From: Bacilli bacterium | GTDB lineage: Bacteria; Bacillota; Bacilli; Paenibacillales; DASWUO01 | Length of the DNA: 38,673 nucleotides | NCBI GenBank assembly: GCA_036401615.1 | Contig: DASWUO010000059.1 | Coordinates: 1-38,673 of the forward strand | Direction of reading: 5' to 3' | In this document: in pieces, positions 13,824 through 38,673 of the stretch | Layout: each line of letters opens with the position of its first letter | How positions within the stretch are numbered: position 1 is the first letter of the stretch | The notes under the pieces: model-generated | The model's database searches: none | What the model was told of the DNA's origin: nothing | Seen by the model: the letters and a program-made list of their open reading frames with translations, nothing else | Translations under genes and position numbers: made by a program

Positions 13824-14667
13824 AATGGAATCTTTTTTCGATATAATGAAAGCCCCTGTCCAAAACGAGACCGACTAAGCCGATGAGCACGATAGCAGAG
13901 ATGACCCGTTCCAAGCTGAGTGCGTTCCAGCTATCCCAGACGAAGAATCCGATACCGGTTCCGCCTGAAAGCATTTCTGCGGCAACGATCACCATCCAGG
14001 CGATTCCAAGGCTCAGCCGCAGGCCTGTAAGAATATAGGGCAACGAGTAGGGGAAAAGCACCTTCGTCAGATACTTCCATTTCGAAAAGCGGAAGACCGC
14101 AGCCACATTTCGGTGGTCCTTAGGAATCGACGAGACACCAAAGGCTGTGTTCACGACTGTCGGCCAGAGCGACGTAATGAAGATAATAAAGATCGTGGCC
14201 GGGCCGACCAAATGAAATACTGCCAGCCCAATAGGAAACCAGGCTAACGGGGACACTGGCCTCAGCACTTGGACAATCGGGTCGAAGAGCTGCCTGCAGA
14301 ACGGTGTCACACCCATGGCAATCCCAAGCGGCACCGCGATCAGCGCGCCCAATAGAAATCCGGCGAACACCCGCCCTAGCGAGGCTAATAGCTGCAGCCC
14401 AATTCCTTTATCGTTAGGGCCGTAGTTATAAAACGGGTTGGAGACAAGATCCCAGAAAATAGGCAGCGTACTCACGGGACCAGGAAGGGCTTTACCCGAG
14501 AGTTGGCTCGTTACTTCCCACAACAGGACGAGGAGCGTCATGCTCCCGATCAGGTAACCGGCCTTGCGCAGGCCGTTCATCAGGCCGTTCATCCAGTGGG
14601 AAGGCAGAGTGAGGCGTCTCACTGATAATACACTATGCGTGACACTCTGTTCTATTTGCTTACTCAT
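13813..14667 (-). CDS. ABC transporter permease, NrtB/SsuC type
   Basis: 284 aa polytopic binding-protein-dependent inner-membrane component, sitting between the SBP and ATPase genes. Confidence 0.85.
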   Translation of the reverse strand: MSKQIEQSVTHSVLSVRRLTLPSHWMNGLMNGLRKAGYLIGSMTLLVLLWEVTSQLSGKALPGPVSTLPIFWDLVSNPFYNYGPNDKGIGLQLLASLGRVFAGFLLGALIAVPLGIAMGVTPFCRQLFDPIVQVLRPVSPLAWFPIGLAVFHLVGPATIFIIFITSLWPTVVNTAFGVSSIPKDHRNVAAVFRFSKWKYLTKVLFPYSLPYILTGLRLSLGIAWMVIVAAEMLSGGTGIGFFVWDSWNALSLERVISAIVLIGLVGLVLDRGFHYIEKRFHYGG

Positions 14668-14672
14668 CTAGA

Positions 14673-15950
14673 TCAACCTCCGTATTGTTTTAACGATCCA
14701 GCCGGATCGCTCGGGTCAAACGTAGCGCCGTCCAGTTTGAGCTGGAAGGACTTCATGTCGTCATCGGGAATGGAGATCCCCATTTCGCCCGCGACCTCAC
14801 GGTACAGGTCCTTCATAATCAGCTTGTCGGCAATCTGCTCGTACTCCGGGTGTTTATCCAGATATCCGAAGCGGACGTACTGGCTCATAAAGAACATGGC
14901 ATGGGATTTGCGCGGTAAGTTCACGCTTCCGCCCTTGTGAAAGAGCATATAATCGTCAGTGTAGATGTGTTCGCCCAGATCGGCGCCCAAATCATATTTA
15001 CCCAGCAGGCGGTTCTCGATCGTTTCGGCCGGGGCGTTGACGTAGGCCTGGTGGCCGATCACCTTGGCGGCCTCTTTGCGGTTATCTAATTTATCGAGCC
15101 ACTGCGACGCTTCGAGGACGGCCTTCATGACGGCCTTCACCTCGTCGGTGCGGGCGCTCCAAACCTTGTTGAGGACAAGAGCCTTCTCGGTGTGGTCCTT
15201 CCAGATGTCCTGTGTGGAAATGTGGGTAAATCCTATTTTCTGCGCTACAGCTACTCCGCCCCAGGGCTCACCCACACAGTATCCGTCCATGTTGCCCACC
15301 TTCATATTGGCTACCATTTGTGGCGGCGGGATCGTGATGATCTTCAGCTTCTTCTGATCGACTCCGACCGCCCCCAACCAGTAGCGCAGCCACAGGTCGT
15401 GCGTTCCCCCGGGGAAGGTCATGGCAAAAGTCGTCTCGCGCTTTGCCATCATCTCTTCAATGGCGGTTTTGGCCGCCTTCAGGTCTCGAAAGCCGGCATT
15501 GCGGAACTCGTTGGAAAGAGTAATTGCCTGCCCGTTCGTATTGAGCACCATGGCGATCGGTAACTCACTGCCAGCCATGCCGCCAACCCCAGTGTAGACG
15601 GAGAACGGCATGCCGAAGAGGCAGTGAGAAGCATTCAGGTCGCCGGAGAGCAATTTGTCGCGTACCGCGGCCCACGAAGCTTCCTTGGTGACGTCCACGT
15701 CCACGCCGTACTTCTCAAAGAGGCCGAGTTCTTTGGCCATGACGACCGAAGCGCAGTCCGTCAACGGAATAAAGCCAATCTTGATCTTCCCTCCCTTCTT
15801 CGGGGTCGGGATCGGGCTGTTTGAGGCAACCGGAGTCTTCTCAGTATTCTTGACTCCGCATGCGGAAAGCAGGGCGCCGGGCAGCATCAATGCGGCACCC
15901 GCCACACCCGTCTTTTTCAAGAACTCTCGTCTTGTTATTTTATCTCTCAT
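14673..15950 (-). CDS. Tat-exported lipoprotein substrate-binding protein, NrtA/CmpA-like (nitrate/nitrite inferred from context)
   Basis: Twin-arginine motif TRREFLKK followed by lipobox LLSAC. The mature domain is of the NrtA/SsuA family type. GGGGAGGA lies 6 nt upstream of the ATG. Confidence 0.82.
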   Translation of the reverse strand: MRDKITRREFLKKTGVAGAALMLPGALLSACGVKNTEKTPVASNSPIPTPKKGGKIKIGFIPLTDCASVVMAKELGLFEKYGVDVDVTKEASWAAVRDKLLSGDLNASHCLFGMPFSVYTGVGGMAGSELPIAMVLNTNGQAITLSNEFRNAGFRDLKAAKTAIEEMMAKRETTFAMTFPGGTHDLWLRYWLGAVGVDQKKLKIITIPPPQMVANMKVGNMDGYCVGEPWGGVAVAQKIGFTHISTQDIWKDHTEKALVLNKVWSARTDEVKAVMKAVLEASQWLDKLDNRKEAAKVIGHQAYVNAPAETIENRLLGKYDLGADLGEHIYTDDYMLFHKGGSVNLPRKSHAMFFMSQYVRFGYLDKHPEYEQIADKLIMKDLYREVAGEMGISIPDDDMKSFQLKLDGATFDPSDPAGSLKQYGG

Positions 15951-16054
15951 AGGATTTCCTCCCCTATCATCGCAGCCGCAAGAGGAGCCATGATCGTCAA
16001 CTGCAATACTTTGATTTCTTCATTTATGAACTTAGAAAAATCAGCCACCTTCAT
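15947..16054 (-). CDS. Candidate 35-codon upstream small ORF coupled to the SBP gene
   Basis: AGGAGGGG, then 5 nt, then ATG 16054. Translation MKVADFSKFINEEIKVLQLTIMAPLAAAMIGEEIL. Its TGA overlaps the SBP ATG (ATGA at 15947-15950). Below the ORF-track size cutoff. Confidence 0.3.
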   Translation of the reverse strand: MKVADFSKFINEEIKVLQLTIMAPLAAAMIGEEIL

Positions 16055-16234
16055 ACTTACCCCTCCTGTAAATTATTTAGCCTCTCGGCATTCGTTGAGC
16101 CAATACGGGACGAAGAATTCCTTGTACTGCTAAAATCATGTTGCGCAATTTCACAACTTCCGCTGCATTTTAATGTAAGCGCGCTTTCTGTATCCCCTCC
16201 TTATCCCGAGTGTAACTAGGCATTTTCATGTTAA

Positions 16235-16286
16235 TAAAGATAACACAAAAGGCCTATCCCTCTACATCGCTGTAGGGAGGATAGGC
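16235..16286 (-). terminator. Leader intrinsic terminator of the nrt-tat operon
   Basis: Minus-strand RNA GCCUAUCCUCCCUACA-gcga-UGUAGAGGGAUAGGC (about 15 bp with one bulge) followed by CUUUUGUGUUAUCUUUAUU. It lies about 285 nt upstream of the SBP start. Confidence 0.7.
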
Positions 16287-16325
16287 TTCATTGCCCTTAA
16301 GGAGTGACACATCATTGTGCTCCTT
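16283..16325 (-). promoter_or_regulatory. ANTAR-type dual hexaloop element (nrt leader)
   Basis: P1 is AAGGAGCAC[AAUGAU]GUG(uca)CUCCUU. P2 is GGGC[AAUGAA]GCCU. Both loops have A at position 1 and G at position 4. The P2 3' arm is the first 4 nt of the terminator 5' arm. Confidence 0.7.
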
Positions 16326-16337
16326 GTTGATATTGTT

Positions 16338-16366
16338 ATTATAAATGGCATTTTCGCATATGTCAA
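16338..16366 (-). promoter_or_regulatory. Sigma-A promoter of the nrt-tat operon
   Basis: On the minus strand: TTGACA (16366-16361), a 17-nt spacer, then TATAAT (16343-16338). Both hexamers match consensus. Confidence 0.7.
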
Positions 16367-16377
16367 TAAACATAACA
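16361..16377 (-). promoter_or_regulatory. TnrA/GlnR-type box overlapping the -35 of the nrt promoter
   Basis: The minus strand reads TGTTATGTTTATTGACA, which equals TGTNA-N7-TNACA exactly. Confidence 0.5.
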
Positions 16378-16433
16378 TTAAAATTTAAAATTCATTAATT
16401 ATGCGACCTTACTCGTCTTTTTTTCTCTTTATA

Positions 16434-16450
16434 TGTCATGTTTTCTTACA
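16434..16450. promoter_or_regulatory. TnrA/GlnR-type box
   Basis: TGTCATGTTTTCTTACA matches TGTNA-N7-TNACA. It sits inside the longer palindrome TATATGTCA...TTACATATA. Confidence 0.5.
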
Positions 16451-16541
16451 TATAAAGACTTCTGATCACCATTGGCGATAAAAAGTTACGCATCTTCTTC
16501 AGTTTTTGTATTTTACTCCAATGTCATCGATCAAAAGATTG

Positions 16542-16558
16542 TGTCAATATTAATAACA
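16542..16558. promoter_or_regulatory. TnrA/GlnR-type box
   Basis: TGTCAATATTAATAACA matches TGTNA-N7-TNACA. Confidence 0.5.
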
Positions 16559-16583
16559 TGAAGAAGATATACGAGAATTTTTA

Positions 16584-16600
16584 CGTTATGTTTATTGACA
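16584..16600 (+). promoter_or_regulatory. TnrA/GlnR-type box (one mismatch) overlapping the -35 of the nas promoter
   Basis: CGTTATGTTTATTGACA. 16 of its 17 nt are identical to the box at 16361-16377 read on the other strand. Confidence 0.45.
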
Positions 16601-16624
16601 TGACATAGTGAATCGTCTTATAAT
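16595..16624 (+). promoter_or_regulatory. Sigma-A promoter of the nasA-nasD-nasE-nasC operon
   Basis: TTGACA (16595-16600), an 18-nt spacer, then TATAAT (16619-16624). Confidence 0.7.
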
Positions 16625-16666
16625 CAAGTTATCACAATAAAGGTGACTGCATATTGATTAATGAAT

Positions 16667-16703
16667 TTAAACACAACGTTGTGTTTAATTGGCAATGAGG
16701 CCA
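16667..16703 (+). promoter_or_regulatory. ANTAR-type dual hexaloop element (nas leader)
   Basis: P1 is UUAAACAC[AACGUU]GUGUUUAA (8 bp). P2 is UGGC[AAUGAG]GCCA. Both loops are A1/G4. The P2 3' arm GCCA lies within the terminator 5' arm AGGCCAU. Confidence 0.7.
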
Positions 16704-16754
16704 TTTCGGGATCCATAAGGATCTTCAGATGGCCTTTTTATGTGTTTTATTTTT
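16698..16754 (+). terminator. Leader intrinsic terminator of the nas operon
   Basis: AGGCCAUUUCGGGAUCC-auaa-GGAUCUUCAGAUGGCCU pairs 17 positions with one C-C mismatch and three G-U wobbles. It is followed by UUUUAUGUGUUUUAUUUUU. Confidence 0.75.
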
Positions 16755-16788
16755 AAAAAATAGAAAAAATTTCAAGGGAGAATCTACT

Positions 16789-18027
16789 ATGGAAGAAAAA
16801 AGTTTTTTAAAAAGCGGCCACAAGCCATCATTGTTCAGTTCTTTTCTTTATTTCGACATCAGTTTTATGGTTTGGGTGCTAATGGGTCCACTGGCAGTTG
16901 TGATTATGAGCGATTTTCAAATGGATGCAGCGCAAAAAGCTAATTTAGTTGCTCTTCCAATTTTAGGCGGTTCCATTCTTCGATTGGTGCTTGGTTGGAT
17001 GACGGATTATATCGGTCCCAAAAAGACTGGACAAATTGGTTTAATTGTTACCATGATCCCTTTAGTAATGGCTTGGCAATTTGTGGAGACTTTAAGCGGA
17101 TTGTATATCACTGCATTATTGCTGGGTGTTGCCGGAGCGAGTTTCGCGGCTGCCTTGCCGCTGGCAAGCCGTTGGTATCCGCCGCAGCATCAGGGTTTGG
17201 CGATGGGCATAGCCGGAGCGGGAAACAGCGGCACGATTATTACTACGCTGTTCGCTAATCGAATTGCCCAGCATTATGGGGATTGGCATATAGTCTTTGG
17301 ATTCGCCCTGATTCCTGTGGTTCTGACCTTTATAGCTTTTACCTTATTGGCTAAGGATAGCCCGGATCAGCCTGCACCCAAGAAGTTTGCCGACTATGCC
17401 GTCGTTCTAAAACAAAAGGATACTTGGTTATTCTGTATGCTCTATAGTGTCACCTTCGGCGGATTTGTGGGGATGGCAAGTTATTTAACGATATTTTTTA
17501 ATACTCAATATGGCTTGGCTCCAATTGCTGCTGCAAATTTTACAACAATCTGCGTCATTGCGGGCAGTTTCTTCCGCCCGGTAGGCGGGTGGCTTTCCGA
17601 TAAAGTTGGCGGCATTCGGATGTTGACAATTCTTTATCTAGGCATTGCCCTGATGCTTGCCGGAGTTTCCACTTTGCCTGCGCTTGGACTTACTACTGCG
17701 ATGCTTTTTGTCGGGATGATGTGTATGGGGATGGGGAATGGCGCAGTATTCCAACTAGTACCGCAGCGGTTTAAGCAGGAAATTGGGATTATGACAGGAA
17801 TTGTTGGAGCGGCTGGAGGCCTTGGGGGATATTTCTTGCCTAAGATATTAGGAAACTTAAAGCTGTCCTCCGGTTCTTTCACTCCTGGGTTTCTGGTACT
17901 TAGTGTCATTGCCGTCAGCTGCATTGGGATCCTCCTTATTGCGCAAGGCCAATGGAAGAAAACCTGGATCGGCCAAGGCGGAAAAGCCAAGAAAGATGTG
18001 GTTGGGGCGCAAGTACAAGCCAGTTAG
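16789..18027 (+). CDS. nasA: MFS nitrate/nitrite transporter (NarK/NasA type)
   Basis: 12-TM MFS with NarK-like Gly-rich motifs (GGSILRLVLGWMTDYIGPKK, GIAGAGNSG). I moved the start to ATG 16789 (AAGGGAG 8 nt upstream) because the track ATG 16729 lies inside the terminator stem. Confidence 0.9.
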   Translation: MEEKSFLKSGHKPSLFSSFLYFDISFMVWVLMGPLAVVIMSDFQMDAAQKANLVALPILGGSILRLVLGWMTDYIGPKKTGQIGLIVTMIPLVMAWQFVETLSGLYITALLLGVAGASFAAALPLASRWYPPQHQGLAMGIAGAGNSGTIITTLFANRIAQHYGDWHIVFGFALIPVVLTFIAFTLLAKDSPDQPAPKKFADYAVVLKQKDTWLFCMLYSVTFGGFVGMASYLTIFFNTQYGLAPIAAANFTTICVIAGSFFRPVGGWLSDKVGGIRMLTILYLGIALMLAGVSTLPALGLTTAMLFVGMMCMGMGNGAVFQLVPQRFKQEIGIMTGIVGAAGGLGGYFLPKILGNLKLSSGSFTPGFLVLSVIAVSCIGILLIAQGQWKKTWIGQGGKAKKDVVGAQVQAS

Positions 18028-18052
18028 TAAATTAAAAGGAGCTGAAATCACC

Positions 18053-20473
18053 ATGGTACAGATGAAGAAGTTAGTTCTCATAGGAAACGGAATGGCAGGG
18101 GTCAACACAGTTGAACATATCTTGAAATTAGCGCCGAATAAATTTGATATTACGATTTTCGGTACTGAACCTCACCCCAATTACAACCGCATCCTGCTTT
18201 CCTACGTGCTTTCAGGCGATTCCAGTGTTAATGATATTGTTATCAACAGCTATGAATGGTATGAATCCAATGGAATTACCCTCTATACGGACCACACTGT
18301 AACTGAAATTAACACTGAGCAACAAACCGTTACCAGCAATCAAGGAGTTTGTGTTGCTTATGATCAACTTATTATCGCAACCGGGTCCAATCCCTTTATG
18401 CTTCCCCTGCCTGGTGCAGATAAAGAAGGCGTCATGGCTTACCGTACAATACAGGATTGCGAGAAGATGATTGAAGCCTCTAAAACATTAAAAAAAGCCA
18501 TTGTTATCGGCGGCGGTTTACTTGGTCTGGAAGCGGCAAGAGGCTTTCTGAATTTAGGCATGAAAGTCGATGTCGTGCATATTTGCGGCTCTATTATGGA
18601 ACGCCAACTGGATCCAACAGCCTCCAGCATGTTGCGTGAAGCTTTAGAGGCACAAGGAATGAACTTTTTGCTGGAAAAACAATCTGCAGAAATCATCGGA
18701 AACGAGCATGTCACCGGGCTTAAATTTAAAGACGGCACTAAAGCCGACGGCGATTTAATCGTTATGGCTGTTGGGATCAGACCAAATGTAGAGTTGGCTA
18801 AAAGAGCCGGTATTGAAGTCAATCCTGGAATTGTTGTCGATGACTATCTTCGAACCAATATTCCCAATGTATACGCAGTAGGTGAATGCGCCCAGCACCG
18901 CGGGATCGCATACGGCTTGGTAGCCCCTCTGTATGAGCAAGGTGCGGTTCTCGCTAAACATATTACTGAAGTAGAAACGGCACCGTATGAAGGATCCATT
19001 CTCTATACCAAACTTAAAGTATCCGGTGTAGATGTTTTCTCGGGCGGTCAATTTATGGAAAGCCCCGGAACCAAAGCCATTCGCATCCATGACGAATTTG
19101 CCGGAATTTATAAAAAAGTGCTGATCAAGGAAAATAAAATCATCGGGGCTGTTTTATTCGGAGACACTTCCGATGGAACCAGACTGATGCAGATGATTCG
19201 TAATCAAACGGATATCAGCGGCTATGATAAAACAGCCCTTCTTATTGAAACAGGAGGCAACACCAACGACTCCTCGAACGTTGCGGAAATGACGGATGAT
19301 AGCATTATTTGCGGCTGCAACGGCGTAAGCAAAGGTACCATTTGTTCAGCGATCAAAACCCAAGGTTTATCTACTGTAGAAGAAGTAAAGAATTGCACTA
19401 CAGCTTCACGCTCGTGCGGGGGCTGCAAGCCGCTCGTCAGTGATTTATTAGCTTATACACTTGGTGATCAATATGATAAAACGGCAGTGAAAGAATCAAT
19501 GTGTGGATGCACCACATTGTCCCGTGATGAAATTCTTGAGCAAATCCGTGAAAAAGAATTATTACACATTCGCGAAGTCATGAACGTACTTGAATGGAAG
19601 ACCGCGGAAGGCTGTTCCAAATGCAGACCTGCCCTTAATTACTACCTTGCCATGATCAATCCGACAGAATATGTGGATGACAGCACTTCCCGTTTTGTCA
19701 ACGAACGGATGCACGCTAATATTCAAAAAGATGGCACCTACTCTGTTATCCCGCGCATTTATGGCGGAGTGACCAACCCTGCCGAGCTTAAACGCATTGC
19801 TGAGGTGGCCGAGAAATTTAACATCCCTACAGTAAAATTTACAGGAGGCCAGCGTCTTGATCTGCTGGGTGTGAAGAAAGAAGATTTGACCCAAGTTTGG
19901 GAAGCACTTGATATGCCTTCCGGTTATGCTTATGGCAAAGCTTTACGAACGGTCAAAACATGTGTAGGCCAGGATTATTGCCGCTTTGGCACCGCAGATT
20001 CCATGGGTATGGGAATACGGATGGAAAAACGCTTTGAACGTTTAAACACACCCGCTAAAGTGAAGATGGCCGTATCCGGTTGTCCGCGAAATTGTGCAGA
20101 GTCCGGAATTAAGGATTTAGGAGTTGTTGCCATTGATGGCGGCTGGGAGCTCTATGCCGGCGGTAATGGAGGAGTAAAGATACGTGCAGGCGATCTCCTT
20201 GCAACTGTAAAAACGGAAGACGAGGTCATCGAATATACCGAGGCTTATTTACAATATTATCGAGAGACTGCCATTTATTTAGAAAGAACCTCAGATTGGG
20301 TAAAACGTGTTGGCATTCAACCTATCCGGGATGTTATCCTGGATGCTGAAAAACGGATTGGACTTTGTGATAGAATGAATACTGTCTTATCTGTAACAAC
20401 GGATCCTTGGAAAGAGGCAATTGATAACGAAAAAATTCAAAAAGACTTATACGAGGTTATTGAAATAAAATAG
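18053..20473 (+). CDS. nasD: Assimilatory NAD(P)H nitrite reductase large subunit
   Basis: FAD/NAD fold (KLVLIGNGMAG), two BFD-like 2Fe-2S modules (CGCNGVSKG..CGGC and CGCTTLSRD..CSKC), and siroheme/4Fe-4S cysteines (CVGQDYCRFG, SGCPRNCAES). Start set to ATG 18053 after the nasA stop, behind AAAGGAG. Confidence 0.93.
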   Translation: MVQMKKLVLIGNGMAGVNTVEHILKLAPNKFDITIFGTEPHPNYNRILLSYVLSGDSSVNDIVINSYEWYESNGITLYTDHTVTEINTEQQTVTSNQGVCVAYDQLIIATGSNPFMLPLPGADKEGVMAYRTIQDCEKMIEASKTLKKAIVIGGGLLGLEAARGFLNLGMKVDVVHICGSIMERQLDPTASSMLREALEAQGMNFLLEKQSAEIIGNEHVTGLKFKDGTKADGDLIVMAVGIRPNVELAKRAGIEVNPGIVVDDYLRTNIPNVYAVGECAQHRGIAYGLVAPLYEQGAVLAKHITEVETAPYEGSILYTKLKVSGVDVFSGGQFMESPGTKAIRIHDEFAGIYKKVLIKENKIIGAVLFGDTSDGTRLMQMIRNQTDISGYDKTALLIETGGNTNDSSNVAEMTDDSIICGCNGVSKGTICSAIKTQGLSTVEEVKNCTTASRSCGGCKPLVSDLLAYTLGDQYDKTAVKESMCGCTTLSRDEILEQIREKELLHIREVMNVLEWKTAEGCSKCRPALNYYLAMINPTEYVDDSTSRFVNERMHANIQKDGTYSVIPRIYGGVTNPAELKRIAEVAEKFNIPTVKFTGGQRLDLLGVKKEDLTQVWEALDMPSGYAYGKALRTVKTCVGQDYCRFGTADSMGMGIRMEKRFERLNTPAKVKMAVSGCPRNCAESGIKDLGVVAIDGGWELYAGGNGGVKIRAGDLLATVKTEDEVIEYTEAYLQYYRETAIYLERTSDWVKRVGIQPIRDVILDAEKRIGLCDRMNTVLSVTTDPWKEAIDNEKIQKDLYEVIEIK

Positions 20474-20516
20474 GTTGACTCGAGAACATATAAGGTAACG
20501 AAGGGAATGATCAGCC

Positions 20517-20861
20517 ATGAGTTTACAGACAGCGACTGCAATATGGGTAGAAGTTGCCTCCTACGATGAACTTCCTGTGAACACAGGTAAGACCGTGCGT
20601 TATCAGGGGCAAGAGGTGGCGTTATTCAAACTAAGCAACGGCAATCTCAAGGCGATTGAAAATCGATGTCCCCATAAGAATGGCGTCCTTGCTGAGGGGA
20701 TCGTATGCGATGACCATGTATTCTGCCCCATGCATGACCGCAAAATCCAACTTTCGACAGGGCTGGTACAAGCGCCTGATACGGGATGTGTAAAAACTTA
20801 TAATGTGACTGTAAAAGAGGGTAAAGTGTATATTGAATTTACAAAGGCGACTTTTTCATAA
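20517..20861 (+). CDS. nasE: Nitrite reductase small subunit (Rieske-like)
   Basis: 114 aa with CPHKNG...CPMHD Rieske-type ligands, immediately downstream of nasD. Confidence 0.9.
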   Translation: MSLQTATAIWVEVASYDELPVNTGKTVRYQGQEVALFKLSNGNLKAIENRCPHKNGVLAEGIVCDDHVFCPMHDRKIQLSTGLVQAPDTGCVKTYNVTVKEGKVYIEFTKATFS

Positions 20862-20876
20862 CTGGGGTGATTTGAA

Positions 20877-23048
20877 ATGACTACTATAAATTCGACAGCG
20901 TCCTTATCCCAAACTTTACTTCCAGCCTTATCTTCTATTAAAACATCCCATTGTTGTTTTTGCAGCATGCAGTGCGAAATACAATTAGAGCCGAGCGATA
21001 AGGAACCCGGGCTAGTTGTTAAACCAAGCCCGGATTTCCCTGTTGCTACAGGGCGGCTCTGTCAAAAAGGATTTAATGTTCTGGATCATGTGCTGCATCC
21101 TTCTCGAATAACCGTCCCCCTAAAGAGGAGAAATACTGAAACTGGAAGTGTTCCCAATGAGTTCGCTGAAAAATATAACCCTGCCGTGTGGCAGCAAAAC
21201 GATTGGAATACAACACTAACAGAAATTGCCTCGAAAATAAAAGCAATTCAAGCTGATCATGGGCATAATTCAGTTGCTGTATACGGCGGCGGTTCCGTAA
21301 CCAATGAAGTTTGTTATTTGCTCGGCAAATTTACAAGAGTTGCCCTCCGATCCAAATATATAGATTATAACGGGCGATTTTGTATGTCTTCTGCTGCTGC
21401 AGCCGCGAATAAGGCATTTGGCGCCGATCGCGGTATGACAATGCCATTATCGGAAATACCAAAAGCCAAGTATATCCTGCTGGCTGGAACTAATATTGCC
21501 GAATGCCAACCTACCCTAATGCCTTACCTAATGGAAGCTAAGAAAAGCGGGGCAACCATCGTTACGATAGATCCCCGCCATACGATGACCTCCAAACTTG
21601 CCGATATTCACGTCCGCCTTCAACCCGGCTTTGACTCTGTCTTTGTTAACGGCTTACTCCATGTGATCATATCGGAGAAGTTGTATAACTCACCTTATGT
21701 TGAATTGCACACAAATGGATTAACCCAACTGATGGAAGCTGTAAAATCTTTCACACCGGCTCGGGTTGAGGCCCTTACTGGTGTACTAGAAGCCGTTATC
21801 CGGACTATCGCCCGCGGTTTCGCAAATGCTGAAACAGGAATGGTTCTAACTGCCCGCGGCCTTGAGCAGCAAGTGAATGGTGTAGAAAACACACTAAATT
21901 ATATCAATCTGAGCTTGCTTACGGGCAAGATGGGTAAGCCCGGCTGCGGTTTTGGCTCCATTACGGGTCAAGCCAATGGCCAAGGAGGGCGGGAGCACGG
22001 GCAGAAGGCCGACCAACTCCCGGGTTACAGGCTTATAGAGGACCCGGCCGCTCGGGAGCACGTGGCTAAAGTCTGGGGTATCCACCCTGATGAACTCCCC
22101 GGGAAAGGTGTCTCTGCCTATGAAATGATTCAAAAAATAGATCAAGGTGAAATAAAGGCGATGATTGTCCTCGGATCCAATCCCGTCGTTTCCTGTCCAA
22201 ACAGTCATTTTGTTGAGCAAGCTTTAAAAAAGTTAGAGCTGTTGGTTGTGGTTGACTTATTCGAAACCGAAACTGCCGCCTATGCCCACTGGCTTCTTCC
22301 CGGCTCCTCCTTTCTTGAAGGCGAAGGCACACTGACGAATCTCGAAGGACGTGTATTTCATCGGCCTCAAGCGCTGGACTTACCCGGCGAAACCAAGCTT
22401 GATTATAAATTGATTTGTGAATTGGCTGAATACTTGGGTCGGGGGGATTTCTTCCAGTATAACTCCATTGAAGATGTATTTAATGAACTTACGGCTGCTA
22501 CTGCCGGAGGCATTGCAGATTACAGCGGCATCACTTATCAGCGATTAATAGAAGAAAAGGGCGTATTCTGGCCCTGTCCTTCTGAAAACCACCCGGGTAC
22601 CCCTACCATGTTCATTCATGGTTTTTACCACCCCGATGGGAAAGCAAAGCTATTTGGTATAGAGCCCCAGATGCCCGCTGAACCGATTGACCGGGAATAT
22701 CCTTATATTCTTACTACTGGTCGGGTGGCTAATCATTATCTAAGCGGAGTCCAAACACGGCGTTCCCCGGGGTTAAATAAGAAAGCTCCGGTCCCTGTTG
22801 CCGAAATCCACCCATGGTTAGCCAAGAAGATTGGCCTCGGCATAGAAAGCAAGATTCGCATCACCAGCCGGCGCGGCTCTCTTATTGTTCAAGCAAAGAT
22901 TTCAGAATCCATCCAACCCCAAACCGTATTTGTCCCCTTTCACTGGGGAGGGGAATTGTCGATTAACCGCCTCACCAATGATGCCCTTGATCCCACCAGC
23001 CGGATGCCGGAATTTAAGATTTGTGCCGTACAGATCGAGTCCACTTAA
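20877..23048 (+). CDS. nasC: Assimilatory nitrate reductase catalytic subunit (molybdopterin oxidoreductase)
   Basis: N-terminal 4Fe-4S motif HCCFCSMQC...RLCQKG, a MopB core and a C-terminal molybdopterin dinucleotide-binding barrel. No signal or Tat motif, so it is cytoplasmic. Confidence 0.9.
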   Translation: MTTINSTASLSQTLLPALSSIKTSHCCFCSMQCEIQLEPSDKEPGLVVKPSPDFPVATGRLCQKGFNVLDHVLHPSRITVPLKRRNTETGSVPNEFAEKYNPAVWQQNDWNTTLTEIASKIKAIQADHGHNSVAVYGGGSVTNEVCYLLGKFTRVALRSKYIDYNGRFCMSSAAAAANKAFGADRGMTMPLSEIPKAKYILLAGTNIAECQPTLMPYLMEAKKSGATIVTIDPRHTMTSKLADIHVRLQPGFDSVFVNGLLHVIISEKLYNSPYVELHTNGLTQLMEAVKSFTPARVEALTGVLEAVIRTIARGFANAETGMVLTARGLEQQVNGVENTLNYINLSLLTGKMGKPGCGFGSITGQANGQGGREHGQKADQLPGYRLIEDPAAREHVAKVWGIHPDELPGKGVSAYEMIQKIDQGEIKAMIVLGSNPVVSCPNSHFVEQALKKLELLVVVDLFETETAAYAHWLLPGSSFLEGEGTLTNLEGRVFHRPQALDLPGETKLDYKLICELAEYLGRGDFFQYNSIEDVFNELTAATAGGIADYSGITYQRLIEEKGVFWPCPSENHPGTPTMFIHGFYHPDGKAKLFGIEPQMPAEPIDREYPYILTTGRVANHYLSGVQTRRSPGLNKKAPVPVAEIHPWLAKKIGLGIESKIRITSRRGSLIVQAKISESIQPQTVFVPFHWGGELSINRLTNDALDPTSRMPEFKICAVQIEST

Positions 23049-34349: not shown

Positions 34350-34535
34350 TCATTTCTTACCCTTCAGCAAGTCTTCAGTCCAGCCTTTTTTCCGTAGATA
34401 TAAATAAATAATTAACATGGATAGACCTATCCATCCAAGGGCTAATCCATACCCCCACAGCCATTCAATTTCAGGCATATGTTTGAAATTCATCCCCCAT
34501 ATTAGATTACCCAAGCGGGGGAAGGTTTGAAACAT
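34350..34535 (-). pseudogene. corA: 3' remnant of a CorA-family Mg/Co transporter gene (last ~60 codons only)
   Basis: LIWGMNFKHMPEIEWLWGYGLALGWIGLSMLIIYLYLRKKGW is the GMN motif plus TM2 of CorA. The roughly 250-aa cytoplasmic domain and most of TM1 are absent, and the upstream gene stops 33 nt away. Confidence 0.6.
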
Positions 34536-34568: not shown

Positions 34569-35393
34569 TTACAATAAGCCTTGGCCTTTCATCGCTCTTT
34601 CGAGCACTTCATATCCAAGGAATCCTGCCCCTTCAGCACTAACCCATTCATTTAAGCCTTCCATCTCCATCATGTGACGAATGACGGATTGTGTTGGATC
34701 CATAGCAAACAAGAGCTCCGTAAACCGTTGGCCCACGGCATCGTCAAACTCAGGCAGCACCGTAAAGTTGCAATGCGAATACCCCGGGGAGGTCCAAATT
34801 CCGTGAATCTCGTTCGTGTTCGCCAACCCTTGCTCCAGCATACGTATCCAAGTGGATTCACCAATAGCTCCGGCATCGGCTTCTCCCTGCTTCAGGGCTC
34901 GCAATACTTCATATTCACTCGTTCCGGTATCGCCATGTTTTCCCACATCCATATTAAAACGCAGCAGTTCTATATCTTTTTCAGGATCAATACCGTTTTC
35001 CTTCAGAAAATAGTAAGGTAGTATAGCCGCTTGAGCAGAATCTGCACTCCCTAATGCGACTTTCTTGCCTTTTAAATCCTGCAAAGCCTGAATACCTTTA
35101 TCCGCACGGGCAATGATTTTGGTAGTATAGTCGATGTCGGTATCCCTCATGCCCAATACTTTTGCCCGGCCCCCCAGCTTTCCTTGCAATTGAATGTAGG
35201 CCACATTCGTATTCCATCCAATATCAATAAACCCCTTCAATAAGGCGTCTACCTGCGCTTCATAGTTGGAAAACAAGACGTAATCCAAAGGCAACCCGTT
35301 TTCTTGATAGTAGGCGCGAATAATATCCCAAATGGCGATGACTTTAGGATCATAAGCAACTGAGCCCAGCAATAATGTGTTCTTCTTAGTCAT
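34569..35393 (-). CDS. PhnD/SsuA-fold substrate-binding-like protein without signal peptide
   Basis: From MTKKNTLLLGSVAYDPK the sequence runs straight into the type-II binding-protein fold. There is no signal peptide or lipobox, and no permease or ATPase partners. ATG 35393 lies behind AAGGGG; the track start is 35459. Confidence 0.72.
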   Translation of the reverse strand: MTKKNTLLLGSVAYDPKVIAIWDIIRAYYQENGLPLDYVLFSNYEAQVDALLKGFIDIGWNTNVAYIQLQGKLGGRAKVLGMRDTDIDYTTKIIARADKGIQALQDLKGKKVALGSADSAQAAILPYYFLKENGIDPEKDIELLRFNMDVGKHGDTGTSEYEVLRALKQGEADAGAIGESTWIRMLEQGLANTNEIHGIWTSPGYSHCNFTVLPEFDDAVGQRFTELLFAMDPTQSVIRHMMEMEGLNEWVSAEGAGFLGYEVLERAMKGQGLL

Positions 35394-35419
35394 GGATATA
35401 CCCCTTGTCCGTATTTTTT

Positions 35420-36547
35420 TTAAAATAAAGGAAGCCCGGCAACGGATTTTCCAACCCATTCCTTCAGCACCTCGGTAGTCGGGCCCATCACAGAGCCAGC
35501 GCGGGCATCGCGTAAATACCGCTCAACAGGCATGCTGCGCAAATAACCTTGTCCACCGCAAACCTGCATGGCCAGATTGGTTACCTTATTTACACTTTCT
35601 GATGCGAGTATCTTGGACTGCATTACATTCAAGATAGCACCCTCTTGTCCTTGAACAGCCCCTGCCGCAGCGCTGCGCGTGAAGAGCGAGGAAGCTTCAA
35701 CCAACCCGTACATCTCCGATAAATAAAACTGGATCGCTTGAATTTCCGCAAGGGCGCGTCCATCGGCATGCTTTCTTGTTTTTGCATGTTCTAGCGCGGC
35801 CGTATAAGCCCCTTTGGCTAAACCGTTGTTTACCCCAGCCACTCCTAGAATAAAAGTAGGCGCCACCACTTGGAAGATAAGGCCCAGACCGTCACCTTCA
35901 GCACCCACAAGTTGATCCGCCCTTATATGGGCATGATTTAATTCCATAGCAATGCTGTTATTTCCTGATAATCCAATACCCTCCCAAGTTCCTTCGAAGG
36001 TTAATCCTTTTGCATCTCGATCTACTATAAACATATCCAAGCCTAAACCCGGTGTGGAAGCATTCGTTAATACAACTAGAAAATCAGCCTTATCCCCGTT
36101 AGTAACGAAGCATTTGCGGCCATTAAGCACATAATGGTTATCTTCTTTCTTGGCTTTAATTTCAGGCATGTAGAAATGTGCACCTGTACCCGTCTCACTA
36201 AAAGCCAAGGTGCCGATTTTCTGTCCCTCAGCAATAGGCCGTAAATATCGCTCCTGCTGATCTGCAGTTGCTTTCGAAGCTATTACGGCAGTACCGCAGC
36301 AGTGCATCAAATAACACATGGCTGTAGAACCGCAAGCTTGAGCGATTAACTCGGTTACAGCGGTTAAATCCTCTAATGTCCCACCTAATCCGCCATGCTC
36401 CTTAGAAACCAATAAACCTAATAATCCGGCCTCTCCGAGTTTTTGAAAGGCTTCTTGGGGAAACCTGCGTTGTGCGTCAATTTCTGCGGCTAATGGAGCA
36501 ATTACTTCTCTGGTAACTTTTGCTGCAGATTGTAGGATCATCGTCAT
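35420..36547 (-). CDS. Acyl-CoA dehydrogenase-fold flavoprotein (MCAD-type catalytic Glu absent)
   Basis: 375 aa with the typical ACAD three-domain pattern. The C-terminal RDA...YEGT block reads RDARAGSVMGPTTEV, so Gly replaces the Glu376-equivalent. Confidence 0.82.
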   Translation of the reverse strand: MTMILQSAAKVTREVIAPLAAEIDAQRRFPQEAFQKLGEAGLLGLLVSKEHGGLGGTLEDLTAVTELIAQACGSTAMCYLMHCCGTAVIASKATADQQERYLRPIAEGQKIGTLAFSETGTGAHFYMPEIKAKKEDNHYVLNGRKCFVTNGDKADFLVVLTNASTPGLGLDMFIVDRDAKGLTFEGTWEGIGLSGNNSIAMELNHAHIRADQLVGAEGDGLGLIFQVVAPTFILGVAGVNNGLAKGAYTAALEHAKTRKHADGRALAEIQAIQFYLSEMYGLVEASSLFTRSAAAGAVQGQEGAILNVMQSKILASESVNKVTNLAMQVCGGQGYLRSMPVERYLRDARAGSVMGPTTEVLKEWVGKSVAGLPLF

Positions 36548-36582
36548 TTGGGGTTTTCTCCTTATATAAGTTAAATTAAGAA

Positions 36583-37869
36583 TTACATAAAATTCGGGGT
36601 ATGCGCTAAAGAAATTTTCTCAGCTGTTTCCAAGTCAAGTCCAATATGAAGCAATCGCTGAATCCGGTGCTCGTTCATCGTTTCCTTCAACCTGCCCAAC
36701 CGTTCAAATCCAACCTGCAGCTTTTCGGGACTGCGCCCTCCGCCAGCTATGATCGCCAGAGCTTCCATAAGATGGGTATTCTCACTGCTGCCTACATCGG
36801 ATAAATAAGTGTTGCGTTCCTCCGAGGCTTGAATAAGTGCATGAATCATATTGGGGTTCTTGCTTAACATATAACGCACATGACCGATTCCATAAGCAAC
36901 ATGGCGGCTTTCATCGATCTTCGCCAGATAAACAATTTTGCGGGTTACCGGATCCGGCGCATATTCTTCAATGTAGCTCAGCAGATCCAAGAAAGTCCCT
37001 TCCCCCAGCACATGAAGCAGGAAGGAAGACTTGAAATAATCCTCTTGGATAAACAGGCTGTTAAGGGAACGCTCTGTCAGGACGGAGGAGTATTGCAGCC
37101 CGCCGCCGCCAGCCATGGCACGCTTGATAAAAGCTTCAATATGCCTCGCTTCATCCTGAATTAAAGTGGATAGATACATACACACTTCAATATAATGCGG
37201 ATTAATGCGGGCTATAAACTTGGCCGGAATATAGAGCGCAGAATATTCGTTCTCTGCCAGAAAGGTCATGATCTGGCAGACGGCCCATTCCAATTCTTCC
37301 GGCAGATCCGGCAGTTGATCCCATGGAATATCGGTCGTTGCATTCCATTGGCCTTCTTTGGACTGCTCATATAAATCGAGTAAGTTGTCAGCCCAAACTT
37401 CATCCTTCCTGTTCAGGGTAAACCCGAAATCAGGCACACCAGATTCTGCTACAGCACCCCGCGGCACAAATCCGATGTACTTTGGCGCTTCATCCAACAG
37501 GTGGCCCAGACGCCCTTGAAACCAATCACGAATATCCAGCTTGGCTCCTTTCCGCAACGGAATCCGATGACCCCAATCCGGTTGACCGTTCACGGCAATC
37601 TGCTGCTTCTGCAGCAAGAGCCGAAAGTGGTCTCCTCCATCCATAGCATTGAGGAAAGTGGCTTTATGCAGCTTACACCACCCTCTCAAATCATCCTTTA
37701 CATGAGGGTTTGTGCTGACTACTTCCAGAACCTCCCCTTTATCCAGATGCTCCATGGCATTCTTCACAAGAAGAAACAGCTCGGATCCGCTTGGCATATT
37801 GCCTAATTCCAGCCTTCTGTCAGGCGTTATTCCCCGAATATCTACCTGATCGTTGGACACTTGCAACAC
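36583..37869 (-). CDS. Fusion of a Cys-less TusA/SirA-like domain with a ferritin-like diiron-carboxylate domain
   Basis: The N-terminus (~90 aa) resembles TusA (GEVLEVVSTNPHVKDDLRGWCKLHKATFL), but the CPxP cysteine site reads MPSG. The C-terminal half carries E(AENE)-x31-DEARH and E(GEG)-x29-DESRH diiron ligand spacing. Confidence 0.68.
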   Translation of the reverse strand: MLQVSNDQVDIRGITPDRRLELGNMPSGSELFLLVKNAMEHLDKGEVLEVVSTNPHVKDDLRGWCKLHKATFLNAMDGGDHFRLLLQKQQIAVNGQPDWGHRIPLRKGAKLDIRDWFQGRLGHLLDEAPKYIGFVPRGAVAESGVPDFGFTLNRKDEVWADNLLDLYEQSKEGQWNATTDIPWDQLPDLPEELEWAVCQIMTFLAENEYSALYIPAKFIARINPHYIEVCMYLSTLIQDEARHIEAFIKRAMAGGGGLQYSSVLTERSLNSLFIQEDYFKSSFLLHVLGEGTFLDLLSYIEEYAPDPVTRKIVYLAKIDESRHVAYGIGHVRYMLSKNPNMIHALIQASEERNTYLSDVGSSENTHLMEALAIIAGGGRSPEKLQVGFERLGRLKETMNEHRIQRLLHIGLDLETAEKISLAHTPNFM

Positions 37870-37878
37870 ATCGCTTCC

Positions 37879-38673
37879 TCAAAGAATATTTGATAGTTCT
37901 GCTATTTGGTTAATCATCATTTCCGTCGCTTCGTCTATGTTGTTGCAGCGGAAAGTAATCCGTTCCCCGGTAAAGTTCTCAATTGCATTCTTGTACCGGG
38001 GGTCATAGTGGTGCTCTAACAATAAATATACGGCTTCAGCAAAACGATCCGCATACAGGTGTTTTTCAATCTCTGCAGCGATTGGGGTATGAATTCGTTT
38101 TTTGATATATTGAAAGGCCTGGATACACGCCTCTTTCTGTTCTTGAGGCCGGTAATCTTCGAGTATATGTTTCACCCGTTCCTCCATCGGCAATTCAATA
38201 AACAACTGGATACCATTTTCCTTGGCATGAAACAAAAATTCGGGCATAACGGTTTTACCTATTCTTTTACTTTCGGCTTCCATCAGCAGATAAGGCGATT
38301 CGCTCCATTTCAACAGATCTTGCAATAGCAACGACTCAAACGTTTTCTGGTTATGAGCCTTAAGCCCAATGTGGCCAAATATGGATCCCCGATGAGCCGC
38401 CAGACCCTCCAGATCCAAAACAGGATACCTAAGCTCTTTAAGCCGAAGCAGCAAAGCGGTTTTCCCGGATCCGGTATTTCCGTTAATTACATAGACTTTA
38501 GGACGCAGGACATACGTCTCCAAAGTATCAACAACCCATTTGCGGTAAGCCCGAATCCCCCCGTTTAACCGATACACATGAATGTCCATAAGCGAAAGAA
38601 CAGTCGCTGTCGTCTTACTGCGCATGCCTCCACGCCAACAATACACTACCTTGCGTGATTCAATTCGCCCGAA
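37879..38673 (-). CDS. selU: tRNA 2-selenouridine synthase, C-terminal ~264 codons (N-terminus off the right edge)
   Basis: Rhodanese active-site loop YCWRGGMRS and P-loop GNTGSGKT with the RGSIFG block. The frame stays open to position 38673. Confidence 0.85.
   Translation of the reverse strand, partial: FGRIESRKVVYCWRGGMRSKTTATVLSLMDIHVYRLNGGIRAYRKWVVDTLETYVLRPKVYVINGNTGSGKTALLLRLKELRYPVLDLEGLAAHRGSIFGHIGLKAHNQKTFESLLLQDLLKWSESPYLLMEAESKRIGKTVMPEFLFHAKENGIQLFIELPMEERVKHILEDYRPQEQKEACIQAFQYIKKRIHTPIAAEIEKHLYADRFAEAVYLLLEHHYDPRYKNAIENFTGERITFRCNNIDEATEMMINQIAELSNIL

Follow-up and report, generated by a model that had tools for sequence, protein, structure and literature searches.

The closest described counterpart of the genes reported here is the Rv1678-Rv1681 cluster of Mycobacterium tuberculosis. 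The literature knows Rv1680 only from a structure prediction, as a "phosphonate transporter component", and Rv1681 has been named MoeX, a "molybdopterin biosynthesis protein", by homology. Rv1679 (FadE16) is described only as a starvation- or hypoxia-induced "beta-oxidation" protein, likewise named by homology; mycobacterial FadE16 rises together with other lipid-catabolic proteins in starvation (PMC11250799). A literature search found no functional study of any member of this cassette and no characterized system combining the three proteins, in agreement with an earlier sequence-only reading of the present locus, which could name no characterized homologous cluster. The stretch of DNA analyzed here (the window, 38,673 nt) is one whole contig, DASWUO010000059.1, of a Bacilli metagenome-assembled genome (MAG; GCA_036401615.1). 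Close to its end lie three genes encoding a fusion of a TusA-like domain with a ferritin-like di-metal-carboxylate domain, a flavoprotein with the fold of acyl-CoA dehydrogenases (ACAD), and a binder-like protein with the fold of PhnD. Sequence comparison shows this three-gene cassette to be the sister of the actinobacterial Rv1678-Rv1681 cassette, with a predicted diiron module in place of a radical S-adenosylmethionine (SAM) module.

The Rv1679 and Rv1680 families were the best NCBIfam matches of the ACAD-like and binder-like proteins in every phylum. The window ACAD scored 304 bits against NF049984 (Rv1679/FadE16 family, cutoff 600), actinobacterial members of the diiron type 446 to 456 bits, and a true family member 608.7 bits; the window binder scored 296.4 bits against NF049985 (Rv1680 family, cutoff 400). 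In Streptomyces, Saccharomonospora, and Arthrobacter, the gene order was DoxD-like protein, Rv1678-family membrane protein, ACAD, binder, and Rv1681-family radical SAM protein, which agrees with that of Rv1678-Rv1681 in M. tuberculosis. The ACADs of these sister cassettes read VMAPT in the active-site block, and their binders keep the KHGDTG and HCNF motifs. The order ACAD-binder-X, in which X is the third gene, was the same in radical-SAM-type loci and in actinobacterial diiron-type loci. The radical-SAM-type binders were 68% identical to the actinobacterial diiron-type binders and 46% identical to the window binder, and they branched as sister to the former, within the diiron-type radiation.

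The third genes of both cassette types share their N-terminal part. The N-terminal domain of the radical SAM proteins, some 60 residues long, is homologous to the TusA-like part of the fusion: Pfam TusA was found in 7 of 30 radical SAM members (best E value, 2.7e-7), a profile-profile alignment of the two N-domains with hhalign gave an E value of 4e-4 with the W-C motif aligned, and a hidden Markov model (HMM) of the radical SAM N-domain matched 57 real fusion N termini against 1 shuffled control (best E value, 4.9e-9). The strand and loop carrying the CPxP motif of TusA are wholly missing from this domain in the radical SAM family. The simplest reading is that the catalytic part of the third gene was displaced in situ, a di-metal/O2 module and a radical SAM module alternating on a common adaptor domain. 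Neither the relationship to Rv1678-Rv1681 nor this exchange had been noticed in the sequence-only reading.

Genes for the Rv1681-type radical SAM protein, the Rv1678-like protein, and the DoxD-like protein were found in four loci (L081, L082, L083, and L085; L numbers denote the loci compared). The two membrane proteins stand upstream of the ACAD in the radical-SAM-type cassettes (L081, 5922-6845; L082, 5117-6003; L085, 5096-6063). Neither the window nor any of the 80 diiron-type loci contained a homologue of either membrane protein or an Rv1681-family radical SAM gene. The constant presence of the membrane pair in the one cassette type and its constant absence from the other suggest that it is needed only when O2 is not the oxidant.

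The cassette is widespread and self-contained. The fusion protein had 1177 homologues at an E value of ≤0.001, with relatives in at least 582 species-level genomes from about nine phyla, the lineages being Bacillota, Armatimonadota, Chloroflexota, Actinomycetota, Campylobacterota (Arcobacter, Sulfuricurvum, Helicobacter, and Campylobacter), Acidobacteriota, Planctomycetota, Brachyspira, and Sericytochromatia. Gene neighborhoods were counted in the best 80 fusion loci, 55 of which had at least 3.5 kb on both sides (full-flank loci). Genes for the ACAD-like and binder-like proteins adjoined the fusion gene in 66 of the 80 loci; both were adjacent in 48 of the 55 full-flank loci, and one further locus (L043) held degraded copies. 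The fusion-ACAD-binder order occurred in 45 loci and the ACAD-binder-fusion order in 21, the ACAD gene always lying directly 5' of the binder gene. Clustering of the flanking open reading frames (ORFs) of the 80 loci gave no fourth conserved gene; the next largest cluster was a LysR family (9 of 80), and immediate neighbors on the same strand were nearly all singletons. Relatives of the window cassette at 79% and 82% identity had only the three genes in common with the window. The three genes thus form a self-contained cassette that is shuffled horizontally and moves as a unit, which bears out the earlier suggestion of a functional unit. In the actinobacterial locus L043 (8065-9953), the ACAD-like and binder-like genes are each split into two tblastn segments, which points to frameshifts, from either cassette decay or assembly error. 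Long ORFs that looked like ACAD-binder fusions in high-GC loci were discarded as artifacts of the ORF caller, arising from read-through of a frame.

In the window, the three cassette genes and a selU gene before them are co-oriented on the minus strand with gaps of 9, 35, and 26 nt (Table 1), as the sequence-only reading had described. Since the window is the entire contig, selU is genuinely cut by the contig end; exact-sequence look-ups of the fusion and the ACAD gave no match. In the NCBI gene call (P0001), the fusion begins three codons later (425 aa), which widens the first gap to 18 nt. The ACAD gene is preceded by the ribosome-binding site AAGGAG, and the start of the binder gene was taken as an internal ATG with the site AAGGGG. 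Consensus scanning of the minus strand gave promoter-like matches inside the unit at 37218..37189 and 37064..37036 and terminator-like matches at 37257, 36052, and 34738. The counts of such matches (5 promoter-like versus a mean of 9.2 in shuffled regions and 7 terminator-like versus a mean of 5.0) were within the range of the shuffles, so these sites are no argument against a single transcription unit.

Table 1. Coordinates of the cassette, its domains, and adjacent selenium genes in the window and in Sulfuricurvum loci
Feature	DNA	Coordinates	Strand	Remarks
selU/mnmH, 3' part (tRNA 2-selenouridine synthase)	Window	37879..38673	-	264 codons; N terminus beyond contig end; outside conserved cassette
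Fusion gene, cassette gene 1	Window	36583..37869	-	428 codons, GTG start; TusA-like domain, conserved linker, and predicted ferritin-like di-metal-carboxylate domain
TusA-like domain, ~aa 14-90	Window	37600..37830	-	M25-P-S-G replaces the CPxP Cys; W64-C65 motif kept
Linker, ~aa 91-160	Window	37390..37599	-	Motifs PDWG, RDWF.GR, GFVPRGAV.E.G.P
Ferritin-like four-helix-bundle di-metal domain, ~aa 161-428	Window	36586..37389	-	Candidate ligands E208 (or E206), E240, H243, E290, E320, H323
ACAD-fold flavoprotein gene, cassette gene 2	Window	35420..36547	-	375 codons; both known catalytic glutamates absent; Rv1679/FadE16-family relative
PhnD-fold binder-like protein gene, cassette gene 3	Window	34569..35393	-	Predicted cytoplasmic; Rv1680-family relative
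selD	Sulfuricurvum L071	8760-9809	Co-oriented with cassette	TIGR00476
selD	Sulfuricurvum L073	8760-9809	Co-oriented with cassette	TIGR00476
selD	Sulfuricurvum L072	6873-7919	Co-oriented with cassette	TIGR00476

The N-terminal domain of the fusion matched Pfam TusA (PF01206) over residues 32 to 88 with 35.4 bits (cutoff, 28.6), and its AlphaFold2 (AF2) model superposed in Foldseek on E. coli TusA (3lvj_C) with a target-normalized TM-score (TMt) of 0.83 and a root mean square deviation of 1.9. The cysteine of the CPxP position is missing in 65 of 66 cassette-linked fusions, the window reading M25-P26-S-G, so the cassette domain is not a persulfide carrier. The second cysteine of TusA, in the W-C motif, is often kept and is replaced in Arcobacter and Sulfuricurvum. 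This pattern of residues suggests a docking or adaptor role for the domain. The linker of about 70 residues that follows is highly conserved, its residues 129 to 146 have a predicted local distance difference test score (pLDDT) below 50 in the AF2 model, and it is a candidate partner-binding segment. The fusions of six loci keep a cysteine at the catalytic position of TusA, in the motif DCGSG (L012, L013, L016, L022, and L023, with the fusion at about 10001-11270 in each, and L025). Five of the six are orphans with no ACAD-like or binder-like gene nearby, while L025 is a cassette locus, and one Armatimonadota genome has an orphan copy (L013) as well as a cassette copy (L028). The orphan fusions may be a distinct, possibly ancestral form whose TusA domain still carries sulfur. 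The neighbors of orphan loci were tried as a functional clue and found to be uninformative, since L011, L012, L013, L016, L023, and L030 gave a metallo-beta-lactamase-fold protein, an SNF2 helicase, AIM24, EamA, or no Pfam match.

In the C-terminal domain, E208, E240-x-x-H243, E290, and E320-x-x-H323 were invariant among 83 homologues. These predicted ligands sit within two DExRH motifs (D239-H243 and D319-H323), in which D319 never varies and D239 is kept by at least 90% of the 83 sequences, and the spacings from E to D in the two half-sites are 31 and 29. The fusion of a Cys-less TusA domain with diiron half-sites of about these spacings, as the sequence-only reading had it, stands on Pfam, Foldseek, and the invariant ligands alike. 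F247 occupies the place that the radical tyrosine has in the R2 protein of ribonucleotide reductase (RNR). The best solved relatives of the domain were the R2-like ligand-binding oxidases, R2lox (E value of about 1e-8 for the profile against PDB entries 6f6c and 4hr0, and about 3e-6 in Foldseek; 17 to 19% identity), followed in Foldseek by the azoxy synthase VlmB (8wvr), aldehyde-deformylating oxygenase (ADO), and class Ic NrdB and class I R2. The fusion scored 47.3 bits (cutoff, 194) and 26.1 bits (cutoff, 274) against the NCBIfam R2lox families NF006200 and NF006198, which is below curated membership, and it was not a curated NCBIfam member of the R2lox, VlmB, ADO, or R2 families. The fusion closes with an invariant short tail, HTPNFM-COOH (window 36583-36600), and so do the Rv1681-family radical SAM proteins, whose tail is FPCA-COOH; by analogy with the R2 tail of RNR, these tails are possible partner-docking elements.

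Similarity to R2 proteins raises the possibility that the third partner, R2-like in one cassette type and NrdG/PflA-like in the other, is an activase that installs or regenerates a radical or a modification on an ACAD-like or binder-like catalyst, in analogy with RNR classes I and III. The nearest di-metal folds (R2lox and class Ic and class I R2), a Phe where R2 has its radical tyrosine (shared with Mn/Fe class Ic R2 and R2lox), and the invariant tails, which recall the R1-binding tail of R2, would all fit such a role. On the radical SAM side, 30 of 30 aligned members matched Pfam Fer4_12, and many are named pyruvate formate-lyase (PFL)-activating enzyme in their sources; the putative recipients offer an ACAD active site without a base of its own and, in the binder, invariant His-Cys and Lys-His-Gly-Asp-Thr-Gly loops as conceivable modification sites. 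However, no glycyl-radical motif or known modification site was identified in either partner, the membrane proteins of the DoxD-like and Rv1678-like families would be left unexplained, the analogy is structural only, and R2lox itself is not known to be an activase. An activase role is accordingly judged quite improbable. A wider version of the same thought makes the TusA-like adaptor the mark of a new class of oxidant generators tethered to their partners, Rv1679-Rv1681 included. Interchangeable R2-like (Mn/Fe or diiron) and radical SAM activases would install or sustain a radical or a protein-derived cofactor on the ACAD/binder pair, possibly for release or transfer of sulfur or selenium; this version is distinctly improbable.

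The matches to VlmB and its homologue 6d9f (E values of about 1e-4 and 1e-3 in Foldseek and profile searches) recall another pairing, that of the valanimycin enzymes VlmH, an ACAD-fold N-hydroxylase, and VlmB, a diiron azoxy synthase; N-oxygenation or N-N bond formation in secondary metabolism, by these enzymes or by one like AurF, would join the same two folds, and flavin N-hydroxylases of the ACAD fold that lack the catalytic Glu are established. The Pfam search of the 428-aa protein that the sequence-only reading had proposed gave an AurF match that was weak (E value, 0.021), along with the firm TusA match noted above. Against N-oxygenation, the neighboring genes included no biosynthetic-cluster context, flavin reductase, or tRNA-synthetase-like partner, the cassette occurs in the small host-associated genomes of Helicobacter, Campylobacter, and Brachyspira, and the ACAD sequence is closer to those of true ACADs than to group D monooxygenases. 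This assignment is extremely unlikely.

All three ACAD domains were recognized in the second protein by Pfam (N-terminal, 86 bits; middle, 61 bits; C-terminal, 84 bits), and the FAD-type motifs FVTNG, ERxxRD, and GGxGY are retained. The catalytic block, YEGT in ordinary ACADs, reads MGPT in the alignment to Bcd (5ol2). In 51 cassette ACADs, the position of Glu376 of medium-chain acyl-CoA dehydrogenase (MCAD) is Ala in 50 and Gly in one, the window protein having Gly, and the position of the catalytic glutamate of isovaleryl-CoA dehydrogenase (IVD) is F, T, W, or Y and never acidic; the absence of either base, which had been read by eye from the window alone, is thus a property of the family. 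Three further MCAD positions show invariant changes, Tyr375 to Met, Gly377 to Pro, and Arg256 to Phe, and three radical-SAM-type ACADs that were checked carry the same active-site changes. MCAD numbering follows a reference sequence in which E376 fell correctly in YEGT. Besides the Rv1679 family, the window ACAD matched the NCBIfam models for 3-sulfinopropanoyl-CoA desulfinase (182 bits), SfnB (108 bits), and DszC (72 bits), all far below the cutoffs, and by score and sequence it was nearer to short-chain/butyryl-CoA dehydrogenases and acryloyl-CoA reductase. His82 was considered as a special residue of this protein and dismissed, since ordinary ACADs such as Bcd have the same His.

Closeness to short-chain acyl-CoA dehydrogenases and acryloyl-CoA reductase is also what would be expected if the di-metal enzyme and the ACAD-fold protein were a pair that hydroxylates, desaturates, or deformylates an acyl thioester or a lipid head group while the binder holds the polar end. 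R2lox and ADO, the structures most closely related to the di-metal domain, have long-chain fatty acids or aldehydes as ligands, soluble acyl-ACP desaturases are established to have motifs similar to the DExRH pair, and the behavior of FadE16 in starvation cited above points the same way. Yet this ACAD has no base for abstraction of the alpha proton and has Phe for Arg256 of MCAD, the family of the binder binds small oxyanions and not lipids, no genes of beta-oxidation or lipid metabolism are conserved nearby, and the cassette is present in Campylobacterota, which generally lack beta-oxidation. A lipid-modifying pair is left with a slim chance.

The third protein matched Pfam Phosphonate-bd with 130 bits, and its AF2 model (pLDDT, 91.7) matched PhnD, PtxB, HtxB, and ArrX in Foldseek (E value of about 1e-24 for 7s6g and 5lq5), with TM-scores of 0.7 to 0.78 to oxyanion-binding proteins. 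Among NCBIfam models, the second-best match after the Rv1680 family was TIGR04553, a "putative selenate" binder (104 bits; cutoff, 250); PhnD scored 64 bits, and the TtrS sensor family was also among the matches. The first beta-strand begins at residue 6 in the window protein and 3 to 13 residues past the start codon in it and nearly all homologues, which leaves no room for a signal peptide or lipobox. None of the cassette binders among 58 members of the family had an export signal; L044_875_1774 alone had a hydrophobic, signal-like N terminus, and it lies in a noncassette position of its locus. Permease or ATPase genes were neither adjacent in the window nor conserved beside the cassette in the neighbor clustering. 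The sequence-only description of a PhnD-fold binder without signal peptide, lipobox, or transporter partners is hereby upheld for the cassette binders of the family. About 45 residues are invariant and cluster in the loops that line the cleft of PhnD, in the motifs GxVAYD, SNY, WNTN, GSxDS, D.GKHGDTG.SE, and HCNF, and they include the pairs His207-Cys208 and Lys152-His153. Of the helix caps that hold the anion in PhnD, S-T-S-G is replaced by D-S-A-Q and the Gly-Ser cap is kept. A DszB-like desulfinase identity for the binder was rejected as homology, leaving a loose analogy at most, because the profile search against the PDB at an E value of ≤10 gave PhnD, PtxB, HtxB, AioX, and ArrX only and no DszB.

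The closest solved relatives of the binder, PhnD, PtxB, and HtxB, hold phosphate, phosphite, methylphosphonate, or hypophosphite. Oxidation of an organophosphonate or of reduced phosphorus in the cytoplasm was accordingly weighed, in which the binder would hold phosphonate or phosphite and the di-metal or radical SAM enzyme would cleave the C-P bond or oxidize P-H, in the manner of PhnZ or PhnJ; cleavage of C-P bonds has both an O2/diiron and a radical SAM route as established knowledge. The loss of the S-T-S-G helix cap, the absence of phn, ptx, and htx genes or a Pho-type context among the annotated neighbors, a di-metal domain that is ferritin-like and not of the HD type as in PhnZ, and an ACAD-fold partner that is not known to have a role in any phosphonate pathway all speak against it, and it is very unlikely.

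The truncated upstream gene is selU (248.3 bits against NF008750, MnmH, cutoff 241, over profile positions 89 to 337 of 346; 230 bits against TIGR03167), and on its account the sequence-only reading had described a selU-linked operon with a possible part in tRNA modification, proposing that the neighborhood of the three genes be compared with and without selU. That comparison went against the operon. In the 80 loci from other species, selU was not found within 10 kb of the cassette in any, even at an E value of 1e-3, it was absent beside the cassette of the closest relative (P0002, 82% identity), and synteny did not extend past the three genes. A selD gene lay within 10 kb in 3 of the 80 loci, all from Sulfuricurvum. 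In these three species it is a true selD (TIGR00476, 357 bits; cutoff, 125) immediately upstream of the cassette, and the outer neighbors differ: two of the species have type II secretion pseudopilins there, and the other has AmmeMemoRadiSam genes. Neither selD nor selU was present within 10 kb in 62 of the 66 cassette loci. As the three genes occur mostly away from both, the selenium-operon reading fails as a general statement: the selU adjacency is a local arrangement, the selenium linkage is occasional, and a role in tRNA modification found no support.

The cassette might nevertheless be a selenium-handling module that frees or delivers selenium for SelD, for example as selenide from a seleno-oxyanion or an organoselenium compound, and so feeds SelU and selenoprotein synthesis; in hosts that make no use of selenium, its substrate would be the sulfur analogue. 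The co-oriented selU 9 nt upstream in the window and the selD of three Sulfuricurvum species with differing outer contexts amount to two independent adjacencies among about 55 distinct contexts, for which we put the chance expectation at about 1%, a rough estimate and not a computed statistic. It is also established that TusA/YedF-like proteins co-occur with selenium genes, and the binder is closer to TIGR04553 than to PhnD. LysR genes adjacent to the cassette and divergent from it in two loci (L019 and L021) had as their best match NF040786, the selenium metabolism-associated LysR (230 and 238 bits; cutoff, 250). As strong evidence for selenium the LysR neighbors were set aside, being mostly below the family cutoff and, in Arcobacter, paired with a putative YeiH-like protein and not with the cassette. 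Set against such a module are the many loci without selD or selU, that of the 82%-identity relative included, the absence of the cysteine by which TusA carries sulfur or selenium from 65 of 66 cassette-linked fusions, the occurrence of the sister cassette in Mycobacterium and Streptomyces with no selenium genes in the loci examined, and the scores of the supporting family matches, all below curated cutoffs. We regard a dedicated selenium module as unlikely; a looser connection to selenium or sulfur is possible at low probability.

Genes of thiol-disulfide and redox metabolism (DsbG-like, redoxin/DsbD, and Rrf2-TrxB-like) were seen near cassettes in Arcobacter, Streptomyces, and Paenibacillaceae. 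In a Bacillota MAG (L087, 4511-5919, on the same contig as L003), an Rrf2-family regulator and a TrxB-like flavoprotein of 309 aa are encoded directly upstream on the same strand, and a homologous 307-aa ORF lies upstream of the cassette in Paenibacillus cymbidii (L006, 8967-9890). The TrxB-like protein could be the missing reductase in these lineages. Four Arcobacter-group loci (L032, L036, L042, and L044, at about 9070-9810) have a gene for a DsbG/DsbC-like periplasmic thiol:disulfide interchange protein directly upstream. Downstream of the cassette, the same loci carry a pair encoding a putative YeiH-like membrane protein, so named by us on a presumed analogy with E. coli yeiE-yeiH, and a YeiE-like LysR protein.

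The explanation that we prefer, tentatively and at somewhat less than an even chance, joins the identity of a sister cassette to a cytoplasmic system for the oxidation of a small anionic substrate, which may bear sulfur or selenium. By analogy with their families, the three proteins would act jointly in the cytoplasm. The binder-like protein would capture the substrate and present it in its invariant polar cleft, the TusA-like domain would be no sulfur carrier but an adaptor for docking, through which the oxidant module reaches its partners, and the di-metal domain would use O2 for the hard oxidation step, an activation of C-H or of a heteroatom. In the sister cassette, the same step would be taken by 5'-deoxyadenosyl radical chemistry, possibly with electrons passing to quinone through the DoxD-like protein. 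The step of the ACAD-fold flavoprotein would be a flavin-dependent redox reaction or elimination other than the alpha,beta-dehydrogenation of an acyl-CoA. Hints to the substrate are weak but repeated and would suit a sulfur- or selenium-bearing oxyanion or organic acid: the selU and selD neighbors, the TIGR04553 and TtrS matches of the binder, the desulfinase and SfnB matches of the ACAD, the thiol-redox neighbors, and the DoxD-family protein of the sister cassette, DoxD being the family of a thiosulfate:quinone oxidoreductase subunit. An oxidative small-molecule role with a cytoplasmic binder, as the sequence-only reading had proposed, is in our view the most reasonable one, and the general tie to selenium that went with it is given up.

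Several points weigh against this explanation. The sulfur and selenium hints are individually weak, with scores below cutoffs and selenium genes adjacent in two lineages only, and the functional steps are all drawn from family-level analogy, the adaptor role of the TusA-like domain from its conservation. The cassette encodes no reductase for the di-metal site, a TrxB-like gene being found upstream in some Paenibacillaceae only. A conserved Asp/Glu at residue 359 of the ACAD might act as an unconventional base; the flavoprotein, instead of acting on the substrate, could serve as a partner in electron transfer; and the binder, with its invariant His207-Cys208 and Lys152-His153 pairs, could itself be a sensor, a regulator, or an enzyme. 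The hosts of the radical-SAM-type cassette (Streptomyces, Arthrobacter, and Mycobacterium) are aerobic, so the exchange is not a plain aerobic/anaerobic replacement. The two modules need not catalyze the same step, and the additional DoxD-like and Rv1678-like proteins mean that the two cassette types are not strictly equivalent.

Elsewhere in the window, a 61-codon ORF (34350..34535, minus strand) lies 33 nt 3' of the binder gene and contains one hydrophobic segment; it lacks a ribosome-binding site, had no homologue among the loci compared, and is probably neither a gene nor a part of the cassette. The window gave no Rfam match for structured RNAs and no PADLOC match for antiphage defense. 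A nitrate-assimilation cluster occupies positions 12987 to 23048, with an NrtA-like binder (14673-15950); of the two ORFs that adjoin it (12987-14667), the first is similar to ABC-type ORFs of other loci. The cluster further comprises a major facilitator superfamily (MFS) transporter, a NirB-type nitrite reductase (17903-20473), and a molybdopterin nitrate reductase (20877-23048). The GC content is 0.53 to 0.57 at 13 to 16 kb, compared to about 0.44 contig-wide, and then dips to 0.35; this shift may reflect horizontal acquisition.

Each cassette protein has lost the hallmark of its superfamily: the fusion lacks the TusA cysteine, the ACAD-like protein its catalytic base, and the binder an export signal. 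Hosts of the cassette number at least 582 species and range from soil Bacilli and Actinomycetota to Arcobacter, Helicobacter, and Campylobacter. Kinship to Rv1679-Rv1681 places three M. tuberculosis proteins that were named by homology in one functional unit and puts in doubt the names "acyl-CoA dehydrogenase" for FadE16, "phosphonate transporter component" for Rv1680, and "molybdopterin biosynthesis" for MoeX. Against the first two names stands the loss of catalytic base and export signal throughout the family, and the lack of a catalytic Glu, the lack of an export signal, and a radical SAM protein specific to the cassette together suggest that all three are misleading. That a radical SAM module has taken the place of a di-metal/O2 module on one common adaptor is a natural experiment, from which both modules would be expected to serve the same partner pair. 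For enzymologists, the cassette offers a defined three-protein system for reconstitution, and its occasional adjacency to selD or selU gives a concrete class of substrates to consider first.

Each domain of the window cassette can be set beside a known system. Like the TusA/SirA carriers, the N-domain of the fusion has a two-layer alpha/beta fold (TMt, 0.83) and often keeps the noncatalytic cysteine of the WC motif; unlike them, 65 of the 66 cassette-linked members have lost the persulfide cysteine of CPxP. With R2lox of Geobacillus kaustophilus (4hr0) and of M. tuberculosis (Rv0233, 4ac8), the di-metal domain shares the ferritin-like bundle, the six-ligand site of twice E/E-x-x-H, the DE[A/G][K/R]H motifs, and the Phe at the position of the R2 tyrosyl radical, whereas identity is 17 to 19% and the window protein adds the TusA-like domain, the 70-residue linker, and the invariant C-terminal tail. 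The 3-sulfinopropanoyl-CoA desulfinase AcdDPN7 (5af7) and the SfnB/MsuC/DszC monooxygenases have in common with the window ACAD the fold, the FAD-type motifs, and the lack of a Glu376-type base; they differ in that no flavin reductase partner is encoded here and the window protein scores far below the cutoffs of these families. The binder has the type II periplasmic-binding-protein fold of PhnD, PtxB, HtxB, AioX, ArrX, and the TIGR04553 proteins, with the same cleft-lining loops and the Gly-Ser helix cap, but it has no signal peptide, lipobox, or transporter partners, has D-S-A-Q for S-T-S-G, and adds the invariant D.GKHGDTG.SE loop and the HCNF motif.

As a whole, the cassette is best compared with Rv1678-Rv1681 (NF049986, NF049984, NF049985, and NF049973) of M. 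tuberculosis and other Actinomycetota. There, too, a Glu-less ACAD (VM[A/G]PT) comes immediately before a PhnD-fold protein that has no signal peptide and carries KHGDTG and HCNF, and the third gene has a Cys-less TusA-like N-domain with the WC motif. The differences are the third gene itself, a radical SAM protein there (CNLACDYCC, C-terminal FPCA) and a predicted di-metal-carboxylate oxidase here, the DoxD-like and Rv1678-like membrane proteins, which occur there only, and the scores of the window proteins, which at 304 versus 600 and 296 versus 400 fall short of the curated Rv1679 and Rv1680 family cutoffs. Among catalogued entities the Rv1678-Rv1681 cassette, itself functionally uncharacterized, is the closest, and the window holds a diiron-for-radical-SAM variant of it.

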